From the IMG/VR virus record IMGVR_UViG_2571042445_000002: a stretch of 64,000 nucleotides of DNA, one strand, 5' to 3'. A program made the translations under genes and the position numbers. Under the pieces are notes generated by a model, which ran no database searches, was not told the DNA's origin, and saw only the letters and a program-made list of their open reading frames with translations. Origin of the DNA: a virus. Taxonomy: Duplodnaviria > Heunggongvirae > Uroviricota > Caudoviricetes. Shown piece by piece: positions 38,229 through 63,402 of the stretch. Position 1 is the first letter of the stretch; each line of letters starts with the position of its first letter.

Positions 38229-39266
38229 TTACCAGAGTTTTGCCGCGTACATCGTTTGTGTGAATGTGTACCCATAGCGTTCTTCAACGCTTTTACCGTA
38301 TTTTTTCCTGGCTTCAGTAAGGCGGATGCCTGTCAGGTCATCGCCGGAGGCAATCATAACTTCCAGTAGTTCCAGGTCCATTTTATCCAGCCTTGCCATT
38401 GCATCTTTAGCCTCTTGAATTTTCCGGCTAACGATCTGGTGTATGGCTGGATCGGCTTCGGCCAGCATTTTATCTGATTTGTTTTTTAAACTCTGATTGC
38501 GGATATCAATGTTTCTCAGGATATATGACTTCACGACGTAGCTTGGCTGCTGCTTTTCCAGATCACGAACCCGATAAAGGTCAAATTCGCCGAGAAGTCC
38601 GCACGGAAGCGGTTTAATGCCAGTGTAAATGGTAAGGGTGCGGCGCTCACCAACGTTGTTAACAACGGGAATCTCTGTGTTTGCTTTTTTTGCAAAGATC
38701 AGCGCACCGTGCGTACCCACTCTGAAGCGTGAAAGTCCATTGTTGCCCTCAATATTGGTGGTAATCACCACATCGGTATAACCTTCTTTTCTTGCGCGGT
38801 ATACCTCGCCCTCACGTTCAGCGGCGAAGAATCTGCGTTCTTCTTCAAGCGCACCGACAACCTGTGAAAATATCCTGTTTTTCATGCTTTTCTTTATAGT
38901 TTTATCGTATTTTTTCAACAGGTCTTCGCGCGTAAATGTTCTCGTTGTGGTTGCGCTTTGCATAACGATATGCGTACTCTGATTAGTATCCTCAACAATG
39001 AATGGGATCGGTAAATAAACCGACTCAACAATGTTTGAGGCTTTGTCATCATCCTTGCGACACAGATCAACAAAGGCTTTCCATTCGGCTATGCATTTTT
39101 CAGCTTCTTCTAATACAGCCGGATCATGTGTTAATGCAACATGGCGAAATTCCTCGCCAACATAACTGGTATCATGGAAAACAGAGTTTGCGACCACCAG
39201 CTCTTTCCACCGTTCAGCGGTTTGCAGGAACCGTTTGTACTCATTCTCGATCGACTTCTTACTCAT
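38229..39266 (-). CDS. candidate master repressor (C1 position); function unproven
   Basis: 345 aa from the internal Met (MSKKSIENEY); convergent with pacB as P1 c1 is; operator motifs in its own 5' region. Confidence 0.3.
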   Translation of the reverse strand: MSKKSIENEYKRFLQTAERWKELVVANSVFHDTSYVGEEFRHVALTHDPAVLEEAEKCIAEWKAFVDLCRKDDDKASNIVESVYLPIPFIVEDTNQSTHIVMQSATTTRTFTREDLLKKYDKTIKKSMKNRIFSQVVGALEEERRFFAAEREGEVYRARKEGYTDVVITTNIEGNNGLSRFRVGTHGALIFAKKANTEIPVVNNVGERRTLTIYTGIKPLPCGLLGEFDLYRVRDLEKQQPSYVVKSYILRNIDIRNQSLKNKSDKMLAEADPAIHQIVSRKIQEAKDAMARLDKMDLELLEVMIASGDDLTGIRLTEARKKYGKSVEERYGYTFTQTMYAAKLW

Positions 39267-39279
39267 TATTCCTACTCGA

Positions 39280-39296
39280 TTTAGTTTTCTAACATA
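39280..39296. promoter_or_regulatory. operator-like motif in the candidate repressor promoter
   Basis: TTTAGTTTTCTAACATA about 15 bp upstream of the proposed start. Confidence 0.5.
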
Positions 39297-39366
39297 AAAG
39301 TCCTGTGACAAATTTATGCCGAATAACAAGGTGAGTAAAGGATAAAACCGCTTTTTTTTGATTGTT

Positions 39367-39462: not shown

Positions 39463-39496
39463 CTAACTTTAAATAATTGGCATTATTTAAAGTTAG
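39463..39496. other. lox-like recombination site (13-8-13)
   Basis: CTAACTTTAAATA-ATTGGCAT-TATTTAAAGTTAG; perfect 13-bp inverted arms, asymmetric 8-bp spacer, 150 bp upstream of the Cre-like gene. Confidence 0.65.
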
Positions 39497-39647
39497 GCTA
39501 TAATCTCCAGTAAACAGGCAGTATTGACAAGGATGAAAAATCATGCCTCGAATCAAAGGCTTGAATTTTGAAAATTAACTTATAACTACCCTGTCAGTTT
39601 TCTATTTTTCACGTAGCGTTATCTGTATATAGAGGTTTAATAGTTTC

Positions 39648-40676
39648 ATGGGTGAACTAGTTATCTCCGGCGGTTCTGGTGGTTTTCTGCGCGATATTGG
39701 CACCGAATACCAGGAAGCTGCAAAAAACTTTATGCAGTTCATGAACGACCAGGGAGCTTATGCCCCAAATACACTTCGTGATCTCCGTCTGGTGTTTCAT
39801 TCCTGGGCGCGGTGGTGTAACTCGCGCCAGCGCCCCTGGTTCCCGATTACGCCGGAAATGGCCCGCGAGTATCTTCTCCAGTTGCATGAGGCCGATCTGG
39901 CTTCGACCACCATTGATAAGCACTATGCCATGCTTAACATGCTGCTTTCGCAATGTGGCCTCCCGCCGCTGTCGGACGATAAAAGTGTGTCTCTGGCCAT
40001 GCGGCGCATCCGGCGCGAAGCGGCAACGGAAAAAGGCGAGCGAACAGGCCAGGCTATACCGTTGCGGTGGGATGATCTGAAATTGCTCGACGTGTTGCTG
40101 TCCCGTTCCGAGCGGCTGGTGGACCTGCGCAATCGGGCGTTTCTCTTCGTGGCATACAATACCCTGATGCGTATGTCAGAAATCTCGCGCATCCGCGTCG
40201 GAGATCTGGACCAAACAGGTGACACTGTAACGCTGCATATTTCACACACGAAGACCATCACGACCGCCGCCGGACTTGATAAGGTGCTTTCTCGTTACAC
40301 TACCGCCGTACTGAACGACTGGCTGGAGGTGTCCGGACTTCGAGAACATCCGGACGCGGTGCTATTCCCGCCAATACACCGCAGTAATAAGGCCAGAATC
40401 ACGACAACGCCCCTTACTGCACCTGCAATGGAGAAAATATTCAGCGATGCCTGGGGGTTGCTGAACAAACGAGATGCCACGCCGAACAAGGGAAGATACC
40501 GGACGTGGACAGGCCATAGTGCGCGTGTTGGTGCGGCAATTGATATGGCTGAGAAACAGGTGTCAATGGTCGAGATCATGCAGGAAGGCACATGGAAAAA
40601 GCCCGAAACACTTATGCGATATTTGCGCCGTAGCGGGGCATCCGTTGGTGCAAATAGTCGCCTGATGGATTCATAA
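39648..40676 (+). CDS. cre: Cre-family tyrosine recombinase
   Basis: 342 aa; aligns along its length to P1 Cre as I recall it, including NTLMRMSEISRIRVGDL, WTGHSARVGAAIDMA, GTW and MRYLR (catalytic Arg, His-x-x-Arg, Trp, Tyr). Confidence 0.8.
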   Translation: MGELVISGGSGGFLRDIGTEYQEAAKNFMQFMNDQGAYAPNTLRDLRLVFHSWARWCNSRQRPWFPITPEMAREYLLQLHEADLASTTIDKHYAMLNMLLSQCGLPPLSDDKSVSLAMRRIRREAATEKGERTGQAIPLRWDDLKLLDVLLSRSERLVDLRNRAFLFVAYNTLMRMSEISRIRVGDLDQTGDTVTLHISHTKTITTAAGLDKVLSRYTTAVLNDWLEVSGLREHPDAVLFPPIHRSNKARITTTPLTAPAMEKIFSDAWGLLNKRDATPNKGRYRTWTGHSARVGAAIDMAEKQVSMVEIMQEGTWKKPETLMRYLRRSGASVGANSRLMDS

Positions 40677-40694
40677 ATTAATTTTCTAACAATC
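40675..40694. promoter_or_regulatory. operator-like motif
   Basis: AAATTAATTTTCTAACAATC after cre, upstream of the next operon. Confidence 0.5.
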
Positions 40695-40748
40695 TTTTTA
40701 GACAGTGCATTTTAATGTAAAGTACCCTCGCCTATTGCGGAGGGTACT

Positions 40749-41093
40749 TTGCACAATCGTATTACGGAATCAAAACGCTTCACTGTTGACGGTTACACCA
40801 TAACCTTCACTGCGGGCGTTAAGCGCGACCAGGCGGTCGTGGTGTTCGGTGTTATGACCGGACTTGATGCCGTTCCCGTATTTACCCTCGAAAAAAACTG
40901 GCGAAATCTGGAGGAAGCTGAACGCTACGTCCGGAAAGTAACCGTCATTGCTGCTGAAAAACTCCTGGCCCACTATCAGGAAAATTATCGCGCTATGACC
41001 GAGAAAATTAACCATGTTTTCACTCGCCCCACCAGCGGCTTCATTGCCCCTGATGCGAATGCCGGGCGCTATCCGGCAAGGGGGCGCAAATGA
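40749..41093 (+). CDS. hypothetical protein
   Basis: 114-aa ORF, first of an operator-controlled operon. Confidence 0.3.
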   Translation: MHNRITESKRFTVDGYTITFTAGVKRDQAVVVFGVMTGLDAVPVFTLEKNWRNLEEAERYVRKVTVIAAEKLLAHYQENYRAMTEKINHVFTRPTSGFIAPDANAGRYPARGRK

Positions 41094-41578
41094 AAACTTA
41101 CTACCCATCCCTGAACTGTTATCCAACCACTAATCCTGAGCTGTCAGGGAAACTTCTGTCCCTCCTGGCTGATAGTCCTGATGAATGGCATAAGCCTGGT
41201 GATATCAACACACAGTTCCCTGAGTACGGGTGTATCCGCACCAGAAATGAGCTGAAGAACCTCATTGCTCACGGTTTTGTTCGTCACCGTAGCGGGAAAG
41301 GCTATCAGTTGGCTATCCCACAAGGAGAGGCAAGAGAACTCTTTGGCTATCGAGAAAGCCAGACGCAAGCGCGGGTGATCGCAGAAATTATCCGTAATGG
41401 CAGCGTCTATGCCCGCAAATTCTGGCTGTCTGGCGGTGGTGATGCATCACAGTTCTTGCGTGCTGTGCGATCGCTGGAGGAACAAGGTGTTATCGAGAAT
41501 ACCTGCGTCTCCGTTCCGACCGCTCCGCATATCAAACGCCGGATTTATACATTTACCCGGAGAGCTAAAAAGCAATGA
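41090..41578 (+). CDS. hypothetical protein
   Basis: 162 aa, ATGA overlap on both sides. Confidence 0.3.
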   Translation: MKTYYPSLNCYPTTNPELSGKLLSLLADSPDEWHKPGDINTQFPEYGCIRTRNELKNLIAHGFVRHRSGKGYQLAIPQGEARELFGYRESQTQARVIAEIIRNGSVYARKFWLSGGGDASQFLRAVRSLEEQGVIENTCVSVPTAPHIKRRIYTFTRRAKKQ

Positions 41579-42069
41579 TTAACGTGAAAGTGAAACGCCT
41601 TCATCCGGCGGCAAAACTCCCCGTTTACGCCACCGCCGGATCGGCGGCGATGGATTTTGTTGCTGTTGAAATAACGCCGGGTATCGATAGCAACGGCGCT
41701 ATTTCCTCAAGCTGGTGGGTGCATACCGGCCTCGCTATGGCGATCCCTCCTGGCTGGTGTCTGAAACTTTATCCTCGTTCCGGATTGGGCTGTAAAAAGC
41801 ATACGCGCCTGGCTAACTGCGTAGGAATTATCGACTCCGATTATCGCGGTGAAATCATGGCAAAACTGATTACAGATCCCGGTGGTGAAGGCGTTTGCCT
41901 CAAGCCAGGAATGGCGGTCATGCAAGGCATTTTTGAGCGTGTTGAACCGGTATCGCTGGTAGAAGTTGATGAACTCGATGAAACAGAGCGAGGCGCTGGT
42001 GGCTTTGGTAGCACATCGGAAGACCGCGTTGAAATCAAGCGTACACCGCTTCAGTACGCAAAGTTTTAA
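41575..42069 (+). CDS. dut: dUTP diphosphatase (dUTPase)
   Basis: 164 aa; motifs AGSAAMDF, RSGLG, GIIDSDYRGE, C-terminal FGSTS. Confidence 0.7.
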   Translation: MINVKVKRLHPAAKLPVYATAGSAAMDFVAVEITPGIDSNGAISSSWWVHTGLAMAIPPGWCLKLYPRSGLGCKKHTRLANCVGIIDSDYRGEIMAKLITDPGGEGVCLKPGMAVMQGIFERVEPVSLVEVDELDETERGAGGFGSTSEDRVEIKRTPLQYAKF

Positions 42070-42083
42070 GTAGAGGAAGGATT

Positions 42084-42746
42084 ATGGTCAGCACTTTTCA
42101 GGTGTTCCCCAAATACAAATGCCACAGCATCATTCGGGCATCGAAAATCAAAGATATTGTTATTGTCGGCGAAGCTTATGCGCCCATTTTTGGCAGTATC
42201 GAAGTCGTTGAGCCAAAAGGAATGACGCTTCGTGTTGATGGTGTGTTCTTGGAAAAATTCCGACCGCAAATAGGAGGATATCTCGTCACTGCTGAAAATG
42301 GCTATCTGGTCTATGTGCCAGAGAAAGCATTTGAAAAATGCTATAGCCGGGTTAACGACGCCTCCGAAAATGGGGTATCGCTCAGCATTGAAGGTCACAA
42401 TGGGGTGACATTCATTACAGCCAGGGACGTAACTATTTCTGCTGGCGGTATCGCTACTCTACAAGAAGAAATCGACCTTGAAGCAGCCGACTTTTCTGAC
42501 GCGCTGATGTGGCTGAAGGATGGCAAGAAAGTTGCCCGACGTGGGTGGAACGGCGAAAACCAATTCTGCTGGCTGGTTCCTGAAGGACAGTACCCGGCAC
42601 GAATGGAAGCCATTAAGGGATATTTTCCCGGCGACCTCGTTCCGTATGGTGCTTATTTCGCCTTAAAAAATGCACAAGGTGTAGTTGTTCCGTGGGTGCC
42701 TTCAGTTGGCGACCTGCTGGCCTGTGACTGGTTTGTTGTGGAGTGA
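42084..42746 (+). CDS. DUF2829 (Tad2-like) domain protein with N-terminal extension
   Basis: 220 aa; C-terminal ALMWLKDGKKVARRGWNGENQFCWLVPEG...VVPWVPSVGDLLACDWFVVE matches the DUF2829 signature. Confidence 0.5.
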   Translation: MVSTFQVFPKYKCHSIIRASKIKDIVIVGEAYAPIFGSIEVVEPKGMTLRVDGVFLEKFRPQIGGYLVTAENGYLVYVPEKAFEKCYSRVNDASENGVSLSIEGHNGVTFITARDVTISAGGIATLQEEIDLEAADFSDALMWLKDGKKVARRGWNGENQFCWLVPEGQYPARMEAIKGYFPGDLVPYGAYFALKNAQGVVVPWVPSVGDLLACDWFVVE

Positions 42747-42752
42747 TTTAAC

Positions 42753-43550
42753 GTGGAAAATACCAAGAACATTCAATATCGCCTGCGTAACGGCCTGCTG
42801 GTGGATGTAAACGATGATATGTCCCTGCCCTTTGCCACCATTGAGCGAACCATCCTTACATACCTGGGTTTAGACGAAGAGTTAGATAGTGAGAATGGCA
42901 TTGCTATCTGGCGTGACGGAAAAACGGGAGTCAGACGTTTTATTACGGCAAGAGGCATTCAGTGCACACAGGAAGAATTGTTTGAACTGGCGCAGTCTTA
43001 TGGATGCATCGCGTTAGATCCCCTGCATGACCCAGCCATAGCGCAACAACTCATTCGAGAGCTGTCGCTTTCGGTCACGCCAATAATCTTCCGCCAGGGA
43101 ACCTTAACCGGCACATGGCGTGTAGAACGCATCTCTAAATATCAGCCATATAATATCCATTTGAACGGCACTATTACTGGTGTGGATCAACCAGTAGCAG
43201 GTGAAAACAAAGACCTGGAACTTGCAGTAATGATGGCTGCTTGTCGCGTGCTTGGCCTGGGCAAGCAGATGTTTATCCATTTCCCAAACGGCGCGGAAGG
43301 CGAAGTAGAGCTGATTTCCTGCGACTTTTCCTTAACCTGGATGCTTGATGAATTCCTGGACAAAACAGTATTCCGTGCTGAAGAACTGGATATGTATGTC
43401 ACCTCAAGTATTCCTAATGACGTGAAAGTTGAGGCCATCGCTACAGCCAGGGCGAAATGCCGTGCGGCGATTGCAGAACAGGCCAAAGAAGAACAGTCCG
43501 ATGAAGTCGCGGCAGATGTGGAAGCAGAGGATGCTGATGCTGACGCCTAA
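42753..43550 (+). CDS. hypothetical protein with acidic tail
   Basis: 265 aa, C-terminus EEQSDEVAADVEAEDADADA. Confidence 0.35.
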   Translation: MENTKNIQYRLRNGLLVDVNDDMSLPFATIERTILTYLGLDEELDSENGIAIWRDGKTGVRRFITARGIQCTQEELFELAQSYGCIALDPLHDPAIAQQLIRELSLSVTPIIFRQGTLTGTWRVERISKYQPYNIHLNGTITGVDQPVAGENKDLELAVMMAACRVLGLGKQMFIHFPNGAEGEVELISCDFSLTWMLDEFLDKTVFRAEELDMYVTSSIPNDVKVEAIATARAKCRAAIAEQAKEEQSDEVAADVEAEDADADA

Positions 43551-44408: not shown

Positions 44409-45971
44409 ATGAAAATGACAAGTATTCAACAACGTGCAGAGCTTCATCGCCAGATCTGGCAAATTGCTAACGATGTCAGGGGGTCAGTCGATGGATGGGA
44501 TTTTAAGCAATACGTTCTGGGCGCACTTTTCTACCGTTTTATCAGCGAAAATTTTTCCAGCTATATTGAAGCCGGTGATGACAGTATCTGTTATGCGAAA
44601 CTGGATGACAGCGTAATTACTGATGACATTAAAGACGATGCCATCAAAACTAAAGGCTACTTCATCTACCCCAGTCAGCTTTTCTGCAACGTAGCTGCGA
44701 AAGCAAATACCAATGACAGACTGAATGCGGATTTAAACAGCATCTTCGTTGCTATCGAAAGTTCTGCTTACGGTTACCCTTCAGAAGCTGACATCAAAGG
44801 TTTGTTTGCTGATTTCGATACTACCAGTAACCGCCTGGGTAACACCGTTAAAGATAAAAATGCCCGCCTGGCTGCGGTTCTGAAAGGGGTTGAAGGGCTA
44901 AAACTTGGTGACTTCCACGAACATCAGATTGACCTGTTCGGTGACGCCTATGAGTTCCTGATTTCTAACTATGCGGCGAATGCTGGTAAGTCAGGCGGCG
45001 AGTTCTTTACACCGCAGCACGTCTCTAAGCTGATTGCACAACTGGCTATGCACGGGCAGACCCACGTTAACAAAATCTACGACCCGGCAGCAGGTTCCGG
45101 TTCGCTGTTGTTGCAAGCTAAAAAACAGTTTGATGACCATATCATCGAAGAAGGTTTTTTTGGTCAGGAAATCAACCATACGACCTATAACCTGGCGCGT
45201 ATGAACATGTTTTTGCACAACATCAACTACGACAAGTTTGATATCAAGCTGGGCAATACGCTGACTGAACCGCACTTCAGAGATGAAAAACCGTTTGATG
45301 CCATCGTTTCTAACCCGCCGTATTCGGTGAAATGGATTGGCAGCGATGACCCGACGCTGATTAACGATGAACGTTTTGCCCCGGCTGGCGTTCTGGCCCC
45401 CAAATCCAAAGCTGACTTTGCGTTTGTATTACATGCACTGAACTATCTTTCTGCCAAAGGTCGTGCTGCGATTGTCTGCTTCCCAGGCATTTTTTACCGT
45501 GGCGGCGCGGAGCAGAAAATCCGTCAGTATCTGGTTGATAATAACTATGTCGAAACCGTGATTTCACTGGCACCGAACCTGTTCTTTGGCACCACCATTG
45601 CCGTAAACATTCTGGTGTTGTCTAAACATAAAACAGATACAAAAGTTCAGTTTATTGATGCCAGCGAACTGTTCAAAAAAGAGACTAACAACAATATCCT
45701 GACCGATGCCCATATCGAACAGATTATGCAGGTATTTGCCAGCAAGGAAGATGTTGCTCATCTGGCGAAATCTGTTGCGTTTGAGACTGTTGTCGCGAAT
45801 GACTATAACCTGTCGGTGAGCAGCTATGTGGAAGCGAAAGATAATCGCGAAATTATCGATATCGCTGAGCTGAATGCGGAACTGAAAACCACGGTCAGCA
45901 AAATCGACCAGTTGCGCAAAGATATTGATGCGATTGTGGCTGAAATTGAAGGCTGCGAGGTGCAGAAATGA
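44409..45971 (+). CDS. hsdM: Type I restriction-modification methyltransferase subunit
   Basis: 520 aa; SAM motif [10 protein letters not shown] and catalytic SNPPYSVKW. Confidence 0.85.
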
Positions 45972-47254
45972 GCGAGTTGAGTTATCTGGAAAAATTGCTG
46001 GATGGGGTTGAGGTTAAGTGGTTGCCATTGGGGAACGTCGCTGAAATTTATGGTGGCCTAACAGGAAAGAGTAAATCTGATTTTGAGAACGGTAATGCCA
46101 GATATGTTTCATACAAAAAAATATTTGGTTATTTAGATGTGAATGATTACCCTACTGATTATGTATATATTAGTGAGGGAGAAAGACAAAATAAAGTAAG
46201 ATATGGGGATGTTTTATTTACTGGCTCATCTGAAATTGCTGATGAAGCAGGCATGTCCTCCGCCGTTACAGTACACTTCGATGAATCAGTGTATTTAAAC
46301 AGCTTTTCTTTTGGTATCAGATTCAGTAACAGCATAAAAATCAAACCGGAGTTCGCAAAATACCTTTTTCGAACCCATTTCATGCGCTCTGAAATAGCAA
46401 AAACAGCTAGTGGTGTAACACGCTTTAATATTTCAAAATCAAGATTTAAAAAAATACTGGTTCCTATCATTTGTCCTAATGATCCAGAAAAATCCCTTGC
46501 CATCCAGTCTGAAATCGTTCGGATTCTGGATAAATTTACTGAGCTTACAGCTGAGCTTACAGCTGAGCTTACAGCTGAGCTTACCATGCGTAAAAAACAG
46601 TACAACTACTATCTTGACCAGTCGCTAAGTTTTAAAGAGGGTGAGGTCGAGTTGAAAACGTTGGGAGAGATGGGGACACTTATAAGAGGCAAACGCTTTG
46701 TGAAATCCGACATAATTCCCAAGGGAGTACCGTGTATTCACTACGGTGAAATGTATACCCATTACCGCATCTGGGCGGATAAAGCAAAATCGTATATCTC
46801 TGTTGAATTAGCGTCCAAGTTAAGAAAAGCCTCATGCGGAGATGTTGTTTTTGTCTCTGCGGGTGAAACAATTGCAGATATTGGTCGTGGAACAGCCTGG
46901 TTAGGCGATGAAGATGTTGTTATTCATGACGCATGTTTTTTCTATAAAAGTTCATTGAACCCCAAGTATGTGGCCTACTTCTCAAGAACAAATTTCTTCC
47001 ACGATCAGATTAAAAAATCGATCTCTTCGGGGAAAATTTCTGCCATCAATGCCAAAGGCTTTGAAAAAGTGATTATTCCAGTTCCTTCACCAGAAGAACA
47101 AGCACGCATCGTTGCTTTCTTGGACAAATTCGACACATTGACAAGCTCCATCACCGAAGGCTTACCCCGTGAAATAGAACTACGCCAGAAGCAGTACGAG
47201 TACTATCGTGATTTACTGTTCAGTTTCCCAAAACCTGAAACTGTCAGTAATTAA
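45968..47254 (+). CDS. hsdS: Type I restriction-modification specificity subunit
   Basis: 428 aa; two AT-rich target-recognition domains around a central conserved region with TAEL repeats; ATGA overlap with hsdM. Confidence 0.8.
46541..46585 (+). repeat. 12-bp tandem repeat (gagcttacagct, 3.75 copies) encoding (TAEL)n in HsdS
   Basis: direct read of the sequence; protein [22 protein letters not shown]. Confidence 0.9.
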
Positions 47255-53292: not shown

Positions 53293-54009
53293 TTACGACT
53301 GCCCTCCCTTCACCTGCTTTAGCGTCAGATTTCCGCAAAAAACCGCACCAGTGTCTATGTAGTGCTGGTTCCAGAAAGATTTCGGGCTGCTTACTGGCGT
53401 ATGCCCGAAAATAAAGCTATCTGCACCAGTGATCATTCCACCAACACCATCAACCGCGTCATAAAATCGCTCACGCCGCCAGGTAACATTGAGATCGCTA
53501 ACAGGTTTACCAAACTGGTATTCGTTATCAGGATAGTCGGCATGGGCTATAACGATAGTTTCATGCCCGGTGTTCAACTCAATGATATAGGGCAAACGTC
53601 TTACCAGCTCCACCAGCGCCCTGGCTAATATTTCCCGATCAGCGTCCAGCATGAAGAACCATTGACCACCATTCATTAGCCAGTTATTCACGTTGCCTGC
53701 GGGACTTAACGCATCGATCATTAATCGCTCGTGGTTTCCCATAACCGACCGAAACCAGGGCATCTGCAATAGCTCCAGGCATTCAACATTTTCGGTGCCG
53801 CGATCGATAAGGTCGCCAACCGATATCAGTAAATCCTGTGTCGGGTCAAAGTCCACACGATGAAGTTCAGACATCAATCTGGTGTAGCAACCATGCAGAT
53901 CACCAACAACCCATATGTTTCTGTAGCCTGAACCATCAATACGGGTATATAAATTCACTTCATGCAGCGCCTGGGTCATGCGGCAACCTTCTCCCGCAGC
54001 CAGATACAA
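53293..54009 (-). CDS. Ser/Thr protein phosphatase (PPP-family metallophosphatase)
   Basis: 238 aa; motifs [20 protein letters not shown]. Confidence 0.7.
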
Positions 54010-56944: not shown

Positions 56945-57251
56945 GTACTCTCCTTTCGAAATAAACGTACTGATTAATCATTCCCAGGGGCATTTCGAGT
57001 TTTTCTGCGATCTCACGGCGGGGAACACCACACTGATGAAGCTGCCGCGCCAGTTCTATATCGCTCTGCCGGTATTTGGCTGACTGGTGAAAGTCTCCTT
57101 TCAGAATCATGCTGATCCGCAGTTGCCGCGCTTTAGTCCTGACAGCACCACCGGTACGCCCGATCAGTCTCCCAATACCCTCGACTGTCATAGTCCCGGC
57201 GCACTGGCGGAGTATCATGATTTCTGCCCTTCCCCATCCCCGCCAGCTCAC
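56934..57251 (-). CDS. HTH-containing small regulatory protein (putative)
   Basis: 105 aa with HTH-like segment GVPRREIAEKLEMP. Confidence 0.3.
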   Translation of the reverse strand: MSWRGWGRAEIMILRQCAGTMTVEGIGRLIGRTGGAVRTKARQLRISMILKGDFHQSAKYRQSDIELARQLHQCGVPRREIAEKLEMPLGMINQYVYFERRVHEV

Positions 57252-57886
57252 GCAGAACTCCTTCTAACCAAAAGAACGCCATCTTCAGAAACAATGTTGC
57301 AGGACTTCAGGTAATTCATTGCCACTTTCGGTAATGGATTCTTTGGATCGGCGTTTGCCAGGGATTTCGATAACCTCAAGATAAATTTGATCATTACCTT
57401 CTGACGGAGCTTGTGCTCATGAGATGCAGACAGGTAATAGGAAATGGTATGGGCTAAACGCTCACGAAGCTGTTCTGTGCCGTGATATACAGCAGCGATA
57501 TCACGCAGTGCATTGACCAGTTCCCGGTAAATATGCGGAGCAACCTGGCATTCAATGTTGGTTGGTGACTCATAAATTACATTCAGCCCCAGCTTTTGAG
57601 CCAGCTCGTGCTCTGCACGAGCGCCAACTGATTCCTCCCACCCCTTGAGCAAATAGACCGCATTAGCCGAACGCAACATTGCAAGGCAAATATCCATGTA
57701 TTCACTCTGGCAGAGGCCAGCAGGTAACAGCGCCGGATTCAGAACAATATGCCCTACCTCCATCAGCTCTTTTGCTTTCGAAAAAAACGCTGTGCGGTTG
57801 TAGTCGGGATAACCAGTCATCGGACCCGCGATGTAAATTTTCATAATGCGTTTTGACATCAAAGTTTCCCCAGGAACGTTACGCAA
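57248..57886 (-). CDS. DUF4406-like (nucleoside deoxyribosyltransferase-fold) protein
   Basis: 212 aa; N-terminal YIAGPMTG...VLNP...LKGWEESVGARAEHE matches the DUF4406 pattern. Confidence 0.4.
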   Translation of the reverse strand: MRNVPGETLMSKRIMKIYIAGPMTGYPDYNRTAFFSKAKELMEVGHIVLNPALLPAGLCQSEYMDICLAMLRSANAVYLLKGWEESVGARAEHELAQKLGLNVIYESPTNIECQVAPHIYRELVNALRDIAAVYHGTEQLRERLAHTISYYLSASHEHKLRQKVMIKFILRLSKSLANADPKNPLPKVAMNYLKSCNIVSEDGVLLVRRSSA

Positions 57887-63071: not shown

Positions 63072-63402
63072 TCAACTCAGTAGTTTTGTTAACTCCCTTA
63101 ATACCAGGTAGAAGAGTAACAAAAATACTAACGCCAGTATTTGCGTGGTCAACGAGGCGTTCATAAACAGAACAATTAGCTTTAACAATTCGAGAATAAC
63201 GTCCATGTCATTCACACTATTTAATTTTTAATCTACAGCCAGCAAACAATGAAGCTGGCCCCCGCATAAAGATTAATGAAAGTCACTTGTCACCAGTGAG
63301 GGGATTTATGAACCACATCCCCCTGAACTGGTGGCCTGTCTGTTTCTCGCATTTCACACCCTGCATACAGTTCCCCCCAGGTTATGACTGTGAGGAACTG
63401 TT

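Follow-up and report, generated by a model that had tools for sequence, protein, structure and literature searches.

The locus described here raises the question of what a protein does in which a Tad2-like (DUF2829) domain is preceded by a region without a Pfam family. Its gene (42084-42746, plus strand) lies in a window of 64,000 nucleotides, by which we mean the whole stretch of DNA analysed, from the virus record IMGVR_UViG_2571042445_000002. The window represents a D6-like phage-plasmid of Escherichia coli, within the P1 family; over 2.9 kb around the gene it shares 98.9% identity with an 89.7-kb E. coli plasmid and about 80% with phage D6, and in near-identical plasmids the gene carries the PGAP label 'DUF2829 domain-containing protein'. 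It is suggested here that the product is probably a tetrameric sponge of the Tad2 type, which takes up a TIR-derived signal, is expressed early from an operator-controlled operon and carries an exchangeable OB module. We found 128 homologues, and 72 of these have the same architecture of OB fold, linker and Tad2 domain. The gene and the parts of its product are:

42084-42746, plus strand: complete gene, an intact open reading frame with ATG start and TGA stop, encoding 220 residues (OB fold, linker and Tad2 domain)
42073-42081, plus strand: GAGGAAGGA, a Shine-Dalgarno-like element read from the sequence, 2 nt 5' of the ATG
42084-42359, plus strand: N-terminal OB-fold domain, Dec-like, residues 1-92, without a Pfam family
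42360-42476, plus strand: strand-rich acidic linker, residues 93-131, with a predicted local distance difference test (pLDDT) score below 50 in the full-length model and at least two alleles in relatives
42477-42743, plus strand: Tad2-like (DUF2829) sponge domain, residues 132-220, on the basis of PF11195, the ModTad2 match and Foldseek

The last 89 residues of the protein form a genuine domain of the Tad2 family. The original prediction had assigned a DUF2829 domain of the Tad2 type to this end of the protein, quoting the strings KDGKKVARRGWNG and DLLACDWFVVE, both of which are present, and had proposed a hidden Markov model (HMM) search with PF11195 and a comparison of a predicted structure with Tad2 as checks. 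Both agree with it. PF11195 matches residues 136-219 over positions 2-73 of its 73 (E=1.6e-22, 80.2 bits against a cut-off of 25). When the AlphaFold2 model was searched against the PDB with Foldseek, the top 24 chains were all Tad2, with E-values from 1.5e-8 to 5e-5 and target-normalised template-modelling scores of 0.61-0.85, ModTad2 being the best fold match (E=1.5e-8); the pLDDT of the model is about 80 in this domain. ModTad2 (9eib/8v3e) is also the best phmmer match among PDB sequences (E about 6e-20 to 6e-21, 46% identity over 87-89 residues), and is followed by HgmTad2/AcrIIA7, SPO1 Tad2 and SptTad2. PF21825, the HMM for Sequestin, has no match in this protein and is present in the relatives P0061, P0071 and P0081. 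The curved all-beta protomer and hexamers that mark Lockin sponges are not found in it either.

The residues of the pocket that holds glycocyclic ADP-ribose (gcADPR) in characterised homologues are retained. W155, N156, W204 and D210 align with W25, N26, W73 and D79 of SPO1 Tad2, and W155, N156, G157, W204, S207 and D210 align with W21, N22, G23, W87, S90 and D93 of HgmTad2, all of them gcADPR-holding residues, while T92 of HgmTad2 corresponds to G209. In 39 full-length relatives W155, W204, S207 and D210 are invariant, and the most conserved stretch among relatives is the alpha1 helix (AADFSDALMWLKEGK), which is the tetramerisation helix. One Tad2-insert allele of the relatives has the pocket Asn replaced by Lys (RREWKG). 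SPO1 Tad2 (gp34.65; PDB 8SME/8SMF) and HgmTad2/AcrIIA7 (PDB 8KBI-8KBM) thus share Pfam family, fold and these pocket residues with the present protein, although identity to it is only 33-36%. They differ from it in other respects: in SPO1 Tad2, F44 blocks the second pocket, and the cyclic-dinucleotide pocket of HgmTad2, made up by a long insert with R31, D34, L36, S47, F70 and N85, is not kept here, R31 being replaced by V165, D34 by G168 and L36 by Y170, N85 falling in a gap and the insert being about 17 residues shorter. Because the pocket residues R31, D34 and N85 are not kept, sequestration of cGG/cGAMP from the cyclic oligonucleotide-based antiphage signalling system (CBASS), as in HgmTad2, is judged unlikely from the alignment.

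The closest counterpart, ModTad2 (or MoTad2, from a Myroides odoratus prophage; PDB 9EIB, 8V3E), shares with this protein the length of the beta2-beta3 insert, so that the alignment needs a single one-residue gap, and the pocket motif W-N-G ... W-x-P-S-x-x-D. It differs in being a stand-alone protein of about 89 residues, whereas the present one has 131 extra N-terminal residues, and at position 209, which is Ser in ModTad2, Thr in HgmTad2 and Gly here. The comparison covers the insert length and the pocket motif. It has been reported that ModTad2 sequesters His-ADPR, the signal of type II Thoeris, without blocking type I Thoeris, that it holds cUMP and cCMP (Pycsar) in a second pocket, and that the ligand specificity of the Tad2 family is not readable from sequence (10.1101/2024.01.03.573942; 10.1101/2025.08.24.671296). 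Collectively, Tad2 homologues inhibit Thoeris I, II and IV, Pycsar and CBASS in differing combinations, and since they differ in the defences that they inhibit, the ligand of this protein cannot be called from its sequence. The proposal in the original prediction that gcADPR is sequestered was therefore sound as to the Tad2 fold but too narrow as to the ligand, as ModTad2 binds His-ADPR and cUMP/cCMP and not gcADPR. By analogy, and in view of the equal insert length, we lean towards an ADPR-type TIR signal, most likely His-ADPR (type II Thoeris) and/or 3'cADPR; cyclic mononucleotides in the second pocket are possible.

The N-terminal half required a different approach. Its approximately 130 residues have no match in Pfam or NCBIfam, just as the original prediction had described them as uncharacterised; in PHROGs they fall in families of unknown function, and a fold search of BFVD returned unnamed phage proteins only. 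A word-indexed homology search with the N-domain alone yielded only four near-identical proteins and an exhaustive HMMER search was therefore needed, which with residues 1-97 recovered 1,070 cluster representatives at E-values up to 1e-3, mostly of 85-230 residues. The members share the motif LPxYxCHKxVxAxKI ... KHxPxxGGYxVxYEDGYxSYSPAxAFExGYT, and over 143 diverged representatives 20 residues are at least 90% conserved, among them the exposed-type polar and aromatic positions H14, K15, Y66, Y70, D72, Y74, S76, S78, E84 and Y87. With phmmer against the PDB, the N-terminus gave a marginal match to Dec, the decoration protein of phage L (E about 1e-3), and the profile of the 143 representatives aligns with the entire OB domain of Dec (probability 93.9%, E=1.5e-7). 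On this evidence residues 1-92 are an OB fold homologous to Dec. Two very large proteins with 9-10 repeated matches each, P0124 (2,543 residues) and P0171 (1,177 residues), were left out of the family as probably spurious, since they look like repetitive extracellular adhesins with short repeats resembling GGY..Y.DG..SY.P. The idea that the OB domain binds nucleic acid found no support in the charge of the family domains, which are not basic (median isoelectric point 6.3), but may still hold.

The likeness to Dec (PDB 6E3C) extends to the motifs KPxVGGYL and AFExxY. The gene for Dec is part of a head assembly cluster, and its product attaches to capsids and ends in a trimeric beta-helix, whereas the OB domain described here is encoded in a predicted early operon, precedes an apparently unrelated linker and a Tad2 domain, and keeps the family motifs that Dec has lost, CHK having become DAD and YEDGY having become SQYGE. 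When both family profiles were compared with Dec by hhalign the alignments stopped at residues 91-93, and no significant alignment of the strand-rich linker, which has a pLDDT below 50, with the Dec spike was found; the resemblance of TARDVTISAGG in the linker to TARTITLTGA in Dec is without statistical support. Among relatives the linker occurs as the alleles VSLSIEGHNGVTFITARDVTISAGGI and TTVIITDDNGVMINLTGSVTISAGGI.

Among the 143 OB-containing representatives the only recurrent Pfam partners are Sequestin (PF21825; seven cases) and Tad2 (PF11195; six cases), and a count with our own HMMs over the 149 matches of an unbiased search gave seven OB-Tad2 and six OB-Sequestin proteins. Relatives of the present protein include 18 Tad2-Sequestin fusions and three triple fusions of OB, Tad2 and Sequestin. 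Of 141 proteins, 124 have the OB domain at their N-terminus. About one third of the 141 (50, with a tail of at most 15 residues) are stand-alone OB proteins, and about one third have a C-terminal extension of more than 60 residues, with Tad2 or Sequestin recognisable in only 13. Three Lastavirus phages of Klebsiella illustrate the exchange, as one OB domain at one early locus is followed in them by three different downstream modules:

L007, 3489-4085: SopranoGao, OB-Tad2
L009, 1489-2013: ZX1, OB-Sequestin
L008, 1489-2364: LASTA, OB, barrel domain and Sequestin

In a second family of elements, of about 90 kb, one locus carries either Tad2-Sequestin or a different N-terminal region joined to Tad2. 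A second small barrel-like module (GDWIIxxxxGxFxxxxxxxFExxY) was also seen to recur directly 5' of Tad2 or Sequestin, in P0059, P0068, P0071 and LASTA_52 (residues about 115-200; L008). Sequestin itself was discovered through its fusion to Tad2 and Acb4 (PMC12265669). The survey in that work was Pfam-based and could not have detected the OB domain. The sponge-sponge fusions described there (Acb4-Tad2 and Tad2-Sequestin, PMC12265669) resemble the present protein in that Tad2 and another small phage module form one polypeptide, and differ from it in the partner, which here is an N-terminal OB fold without a Pfam family. One further protein, P0023 (306 residues, on one 10-kb contig), has an N-terminus with a tail-fibre repeat (PF03406) joined within the OB domain and then Tad2; this chimera may be a rearrangement or an assembly artefact.

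Natural variation in the gene is also consistent with a modular protein. Orf114 of phage D6 is a homologue in which a deletion of residues about 21-93 removes the OB domain and leaves linker and Tad2 in place, and P0053 (241 residues; 15 member sequences, on contigs of up to 88.6 kb) is an in-frame fusion without the OB fold, consisting of dUTPase from residue 1 to about 143 and then the end of the linker and the Tad2 domain. The OB fold is a separate, exchangeable module that is dispensable for retention of the sponge domain, as these natural variants delete it and keep Tad2. Segment-wise identities point to free recombination of at least two OB, two linker and at least three Tad2-insert alleles; in P0010, P0012 and P0013, for instance, segments with 99-100% identity to this protein occur beside segments with only 39-54%. 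The gene is present in 213 of 5,426 complete E. coli genomes, nearly always on plasmids of about 90-100 kb. It is absent from P1, where ssb is followed directly by isaA, and in the P1-like SJ46 it lies between these two genes, so that it occupies two different genomic positions with isaA 3' of it each time. This allele mosaic and patchy presence are as one would expect of an accessory gene that is exposed to diversifying pressure. A published survey of clinical isolates by anti-defence scanning found Tad2 in 93% of D6-like and 56% of P1-like phage-plasmids (10.1101/2025.09.12.675607). It concerns the same gene family and, in the part of that source accessible to us, gives presence only, without domain architecture, OB module or allele mosaic. 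The occurrence of Tad2 in D6 and P1 phage-plasmids is thus already published, and that half of the finding is ordinary. In the Bacillus phages JL and Shanette a Tad2 homologue adjoins a dUTPase gene.

The genomic setting bears on when the protein would be made. The relevant features are:

40675-40691, plus strand: operator-like 17-mer AAATTAATTTTCTAACA, 58 bp upstream of orf114, the first gene of the operon
40749-41093, plus strand: orf114 of the window, operon gene 1, phrog_1968, unknown function; gene order as in phage D6
41090-41578, plus strand: orf162, phrog_6669, unknown function, with a 4-nt overlap with each neighbour
41575-42069, plus strand: dut (dUTPase), directly upstream of the OB-Tad2 gene; PF00692 E=3.5e-13, phrog_135 E=3.6e-61
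42753-43550, plus strand: IsaA homologue, 6 nt 3' of the OB-Tad2 gene; 46% identity to P1 IsaA and 72% to D6 orf113
17109, 18319, 29929, 31174/31187, 31324, 34823/34836, 39278, 40675, 53231/53244, 58058/58071 and 58702: copies of AAATTAATTTTCTAACA

The five plus-strand genes orf114, orf162, dut, OB-Tad2 and isaA-like are separated by junctions of only -4, -4, 14 and 6 nt, the 14 nt being the distance from the dut stop to the gene under study, and are for this reason regarded as a single operon. That a dUTPase gene belongs to the same operon, as the original prediction had it, is confirmed. NCBIfam has no model for the OB-Tad2 protein or for its operon neighbours. The IsaA homologue belongs to no Pfam family and has no assigned function. 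It lies directly 3' of the Tad2 gene in the window, in D6 and in SJ46 (L001, 3041-3817, and L002, 4643-5425), in two different genomic settings. Together the two genes have the character of a cassette. In the annotations, the first 65 residues of P1 IsaA match the N-terminus of SJ46_0048, which points either to an exact loss or gain of the Tad2 gene or to a start annotated too far upstream.

The claim that this operon is operator-controlled and early could be substantiated in part. The P1 C1 operator consensus ATTGCTCTAATAAATTT has no match in the window at up to three mismatches, and it was after this result that a k-mer scan of the intergenic region led to AAATTAATTTTCTAACA. With up to three mismatches the latter has 15 sites in the window against 0.38 expected, a number reached by none of 100 shuffles. 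Four overlapping inverted pairs are found among the sites; in P1, such pairs form the bivalent C1 operators. Among the genes that follow the sites are lpa-, ref-, ant-, pmgS- and c1-like ones, homologues of genes controlled by C1 in P1, and the 3' nine bases of the motif are those of the P1 operator Ossb, to which nine bases the likeness to P1 operators is limited. In the P1-like SJ46 the same gene follows ssb, which in P1 is under the annotated C1 operator Ossb. By analogy with P1, AAATTAATTTTCTAACA is probably the operator of a resident C1-type repressor of the heteroimmune D6 type; if so, the operon would be early and derepressed on induction. The late promoter pattern of P1 (-22 box AAGTGAnT plus -10) has a single match in the window, at 63270 (minus strand), which is not close to the operon. 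The genes adjoining two of the bivalent sites, 57248-57886 and 53293-54009 (both minus strand), match PHROG families of nucleoside 2-deoxyribosyltransferase/MazG-like proteins and NinI-like phosphatases, respectively, and the early regulon may include them as additional genes for nucleotide metabolism or counter-defence.

From these observations we propose that this D6-like phage-plasmid probably encodes here a counter-defence protein of two modules. Judging from solved Tad2 structures, four copies of the Tad2 domain would assemble into a tetramer whose inter-subunit pockets bind a TIR-made alarm molecule of the ADP-ribose type, and with this molecule sequestered the host effector would never be activated. 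Co-transcription with dut and isaA behind a C1-type operator would keep the gene silent in the plasmid prophage and turn on its expression early after infection or induction. The OB fold could then be a second binding module with a counter-defence role of its own, directed at a second ligand or target or serving as a targeting platform. An independent role of this kind is possible but doubtful; it is put forward because the OB domain recurs with only two kinds of recognisable partner, Tad2 and Sequestin, which are sponge families unrelated to each other. Several points weigh against the proposal. About 90% of OB family members are without a recognisable sponge, and a fused element that forms trimers would clash with the fourfold assembly of Tad2. 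The specificity of Tad2 varies so widely that no prediction of it is possible at 46% identity, the residues of the HgmTad2 cyclic-dinucleotide pocket are not kept, and the sponge activity, ligand binding and oligomeric state of this protein are predicted by analogy. As to regulation, a scan for sigma-70-like promoters gave none between the operator and orf114, the function of the operator is argued from P1, and the C1-like protein (38229-39329) scores only 24 bits with the NCBIfam C1 model, for which the cut-off is 500.

Two further points against it concern Dec, the sole experimentally characterised relative of the OB domain, which binds capsids, and Ralstonia phage GP4, whose OB gene lies within the head-gene cluster. 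They open the possibility that the OB domain retains a Dec-like capsid binding and anchors Tad2 on procapsids or capsids, with the outcome that the sponge is held near the source of a capsid-sensing TIR signal, that the capsid is masked from sensors, or that the protein is loaded onto virions. That Thoeris TIR proteins can detect the capsid proteins of phages is on record (PMC12578639). Foldseek aligns the full-length model with Dec over 114 columns, beyond the OB core, and the stand-alone OB gene of GP4 (L010, 2004-2279) is situated between the genes for a scaffold-like acidic protein and the major capsid protein, although a CsrA-like neighbour indicates that non-structural genes occur in that region too. 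In the lambdoid phage Bas106 an OB gene follows the lysis genes near the end of the circular record, a position that may correspond to that of dec in phage L, directly upstream of the small terminase gene. Against such a tether, the gene described here is placed between dut and isaA in a probably operator-controlled early operon and not in a head or late module, with no P1-type late promoter box near it. Moreover, the OB motif (CHK...GGYxVxYEDGYxSYSPAxAFExGY) is kept across phages with unrelated capsids and mostly lost in Dec itself, and the linker has no significant similarity to the trimeric Dec spike. We regard a capsid tether as quite unlikely.

The OB domain might instead be a mere structural helper, contributing solubility, stability or a scaffold for oligomerisation to a protein that acts as a stand-alone Tad2. 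The persistence of the natural variants without OB, D6 orf114 and the 15 sequences of P0053, would fit with this, as would the solved homologues of 86-104 residues, in which the Tad2 domain is whole and needs no partner. A helper would not, however, be expected to keep 20 residues at 90% conservation or above across 143 representatives, nor to occur as a stand-alone protein in 50 of 141 cases, and we consider this explanation unlikely. It is also conceivable that the Tad2-like domain takes up a housekeeping nucleotide such as cyclic di-GMP (c-di-GMP), thereby reprogramming the host, or that it is an anti-CRISPR protein like AcrIIA7, given that HgmTad2 has an affinity for c-di-GMP in the picomolar range and that the first report of the family was as an anti-CRISPR. 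The altered cyclic-dinucleotide pocket and shorter insert speak against the former and the irreproducibility of the anti-Cas9 activity of Tad2 against the latter; E. coli, in addition, is not known to carry type II-A CRISPR. Both ideas are regarded as very improbable.

The Tad2 half of the protein is routine and adds one further annotated sponge to those recorded. More could follow from the OB half. An OB domain that stands before two unrelated sponge families and is swapped at a fixed locus invites the same 'guilt by fusion' logic by which Sequestin was found, and the OB module could define a new anti-defence family. A broader conjecture, which is unlikely to be right, is that the Dec-like OB domain is a widespread counter-defence module of phages, numbering over 1,000 clusters and missing from Pfam, and acts as a sponge for a further signal or as a capsid tether that brings swappable cargoes (Tad2, Sequestin and others) to the site at which capsid-sensing TIR proteins fire. 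Were this true, the uncharacterised C-terminal extensions on OB domains, of which there are more than 50, would amount to a ready list of anti-defence domains still to be discovered. Neither the OB-sponge architecture nor the swapping of its modules is described in the literature available to us. The decoration protein of phage L, with its 'novel OB fold', now has a place in a large family, and the recombinants of OB, linker and Tad2-insert alleles in phage-plasmids of clinical E. coli, Shigella and Salmonella form a natural series for mapping the ligand specificity of Tad2.

The surroundings of the operon contain some other features:

39648-40676: Cre/Dre-type tyrosine recombinase gene, upstream of the operon
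39464-39495: rox site TAACTTTAAATAATTGGCATTATTTAAAGTTA, 150 bp upstream of the recombinase gene; D6 annotates rox at the same place
40722-40747, plus strand: hairpin GTACCCTC-N10-GAGGGTAC with an 8-bp stem, just 3' of the recombinase gene and enclosing the Shine-Dalgarno sequence of orf114

The sequence TAACTTTAAATAATTGGCATTATTTAAAGTTA is the exact reverse complement of the published Dre target, rox. It is overlapped by a sigma-70-like promoter with 11 of 12 positions in agreement (TTGGCA-16-TATAAT, 39477-39504). The hairpin at 40722-40747 could be a weak terminator or a translational gate for orf114, whose start codon is TTG. Directly downstream of the operon lies a phd/doc toxin-antitoxin pair (PF02604, PF02661; 43631-44238, minus strand), and genes for putative M and S subunits of a type I restriction-modification-like system, recognised by eye from the translations, are found at 44409-47254 (plus strand).

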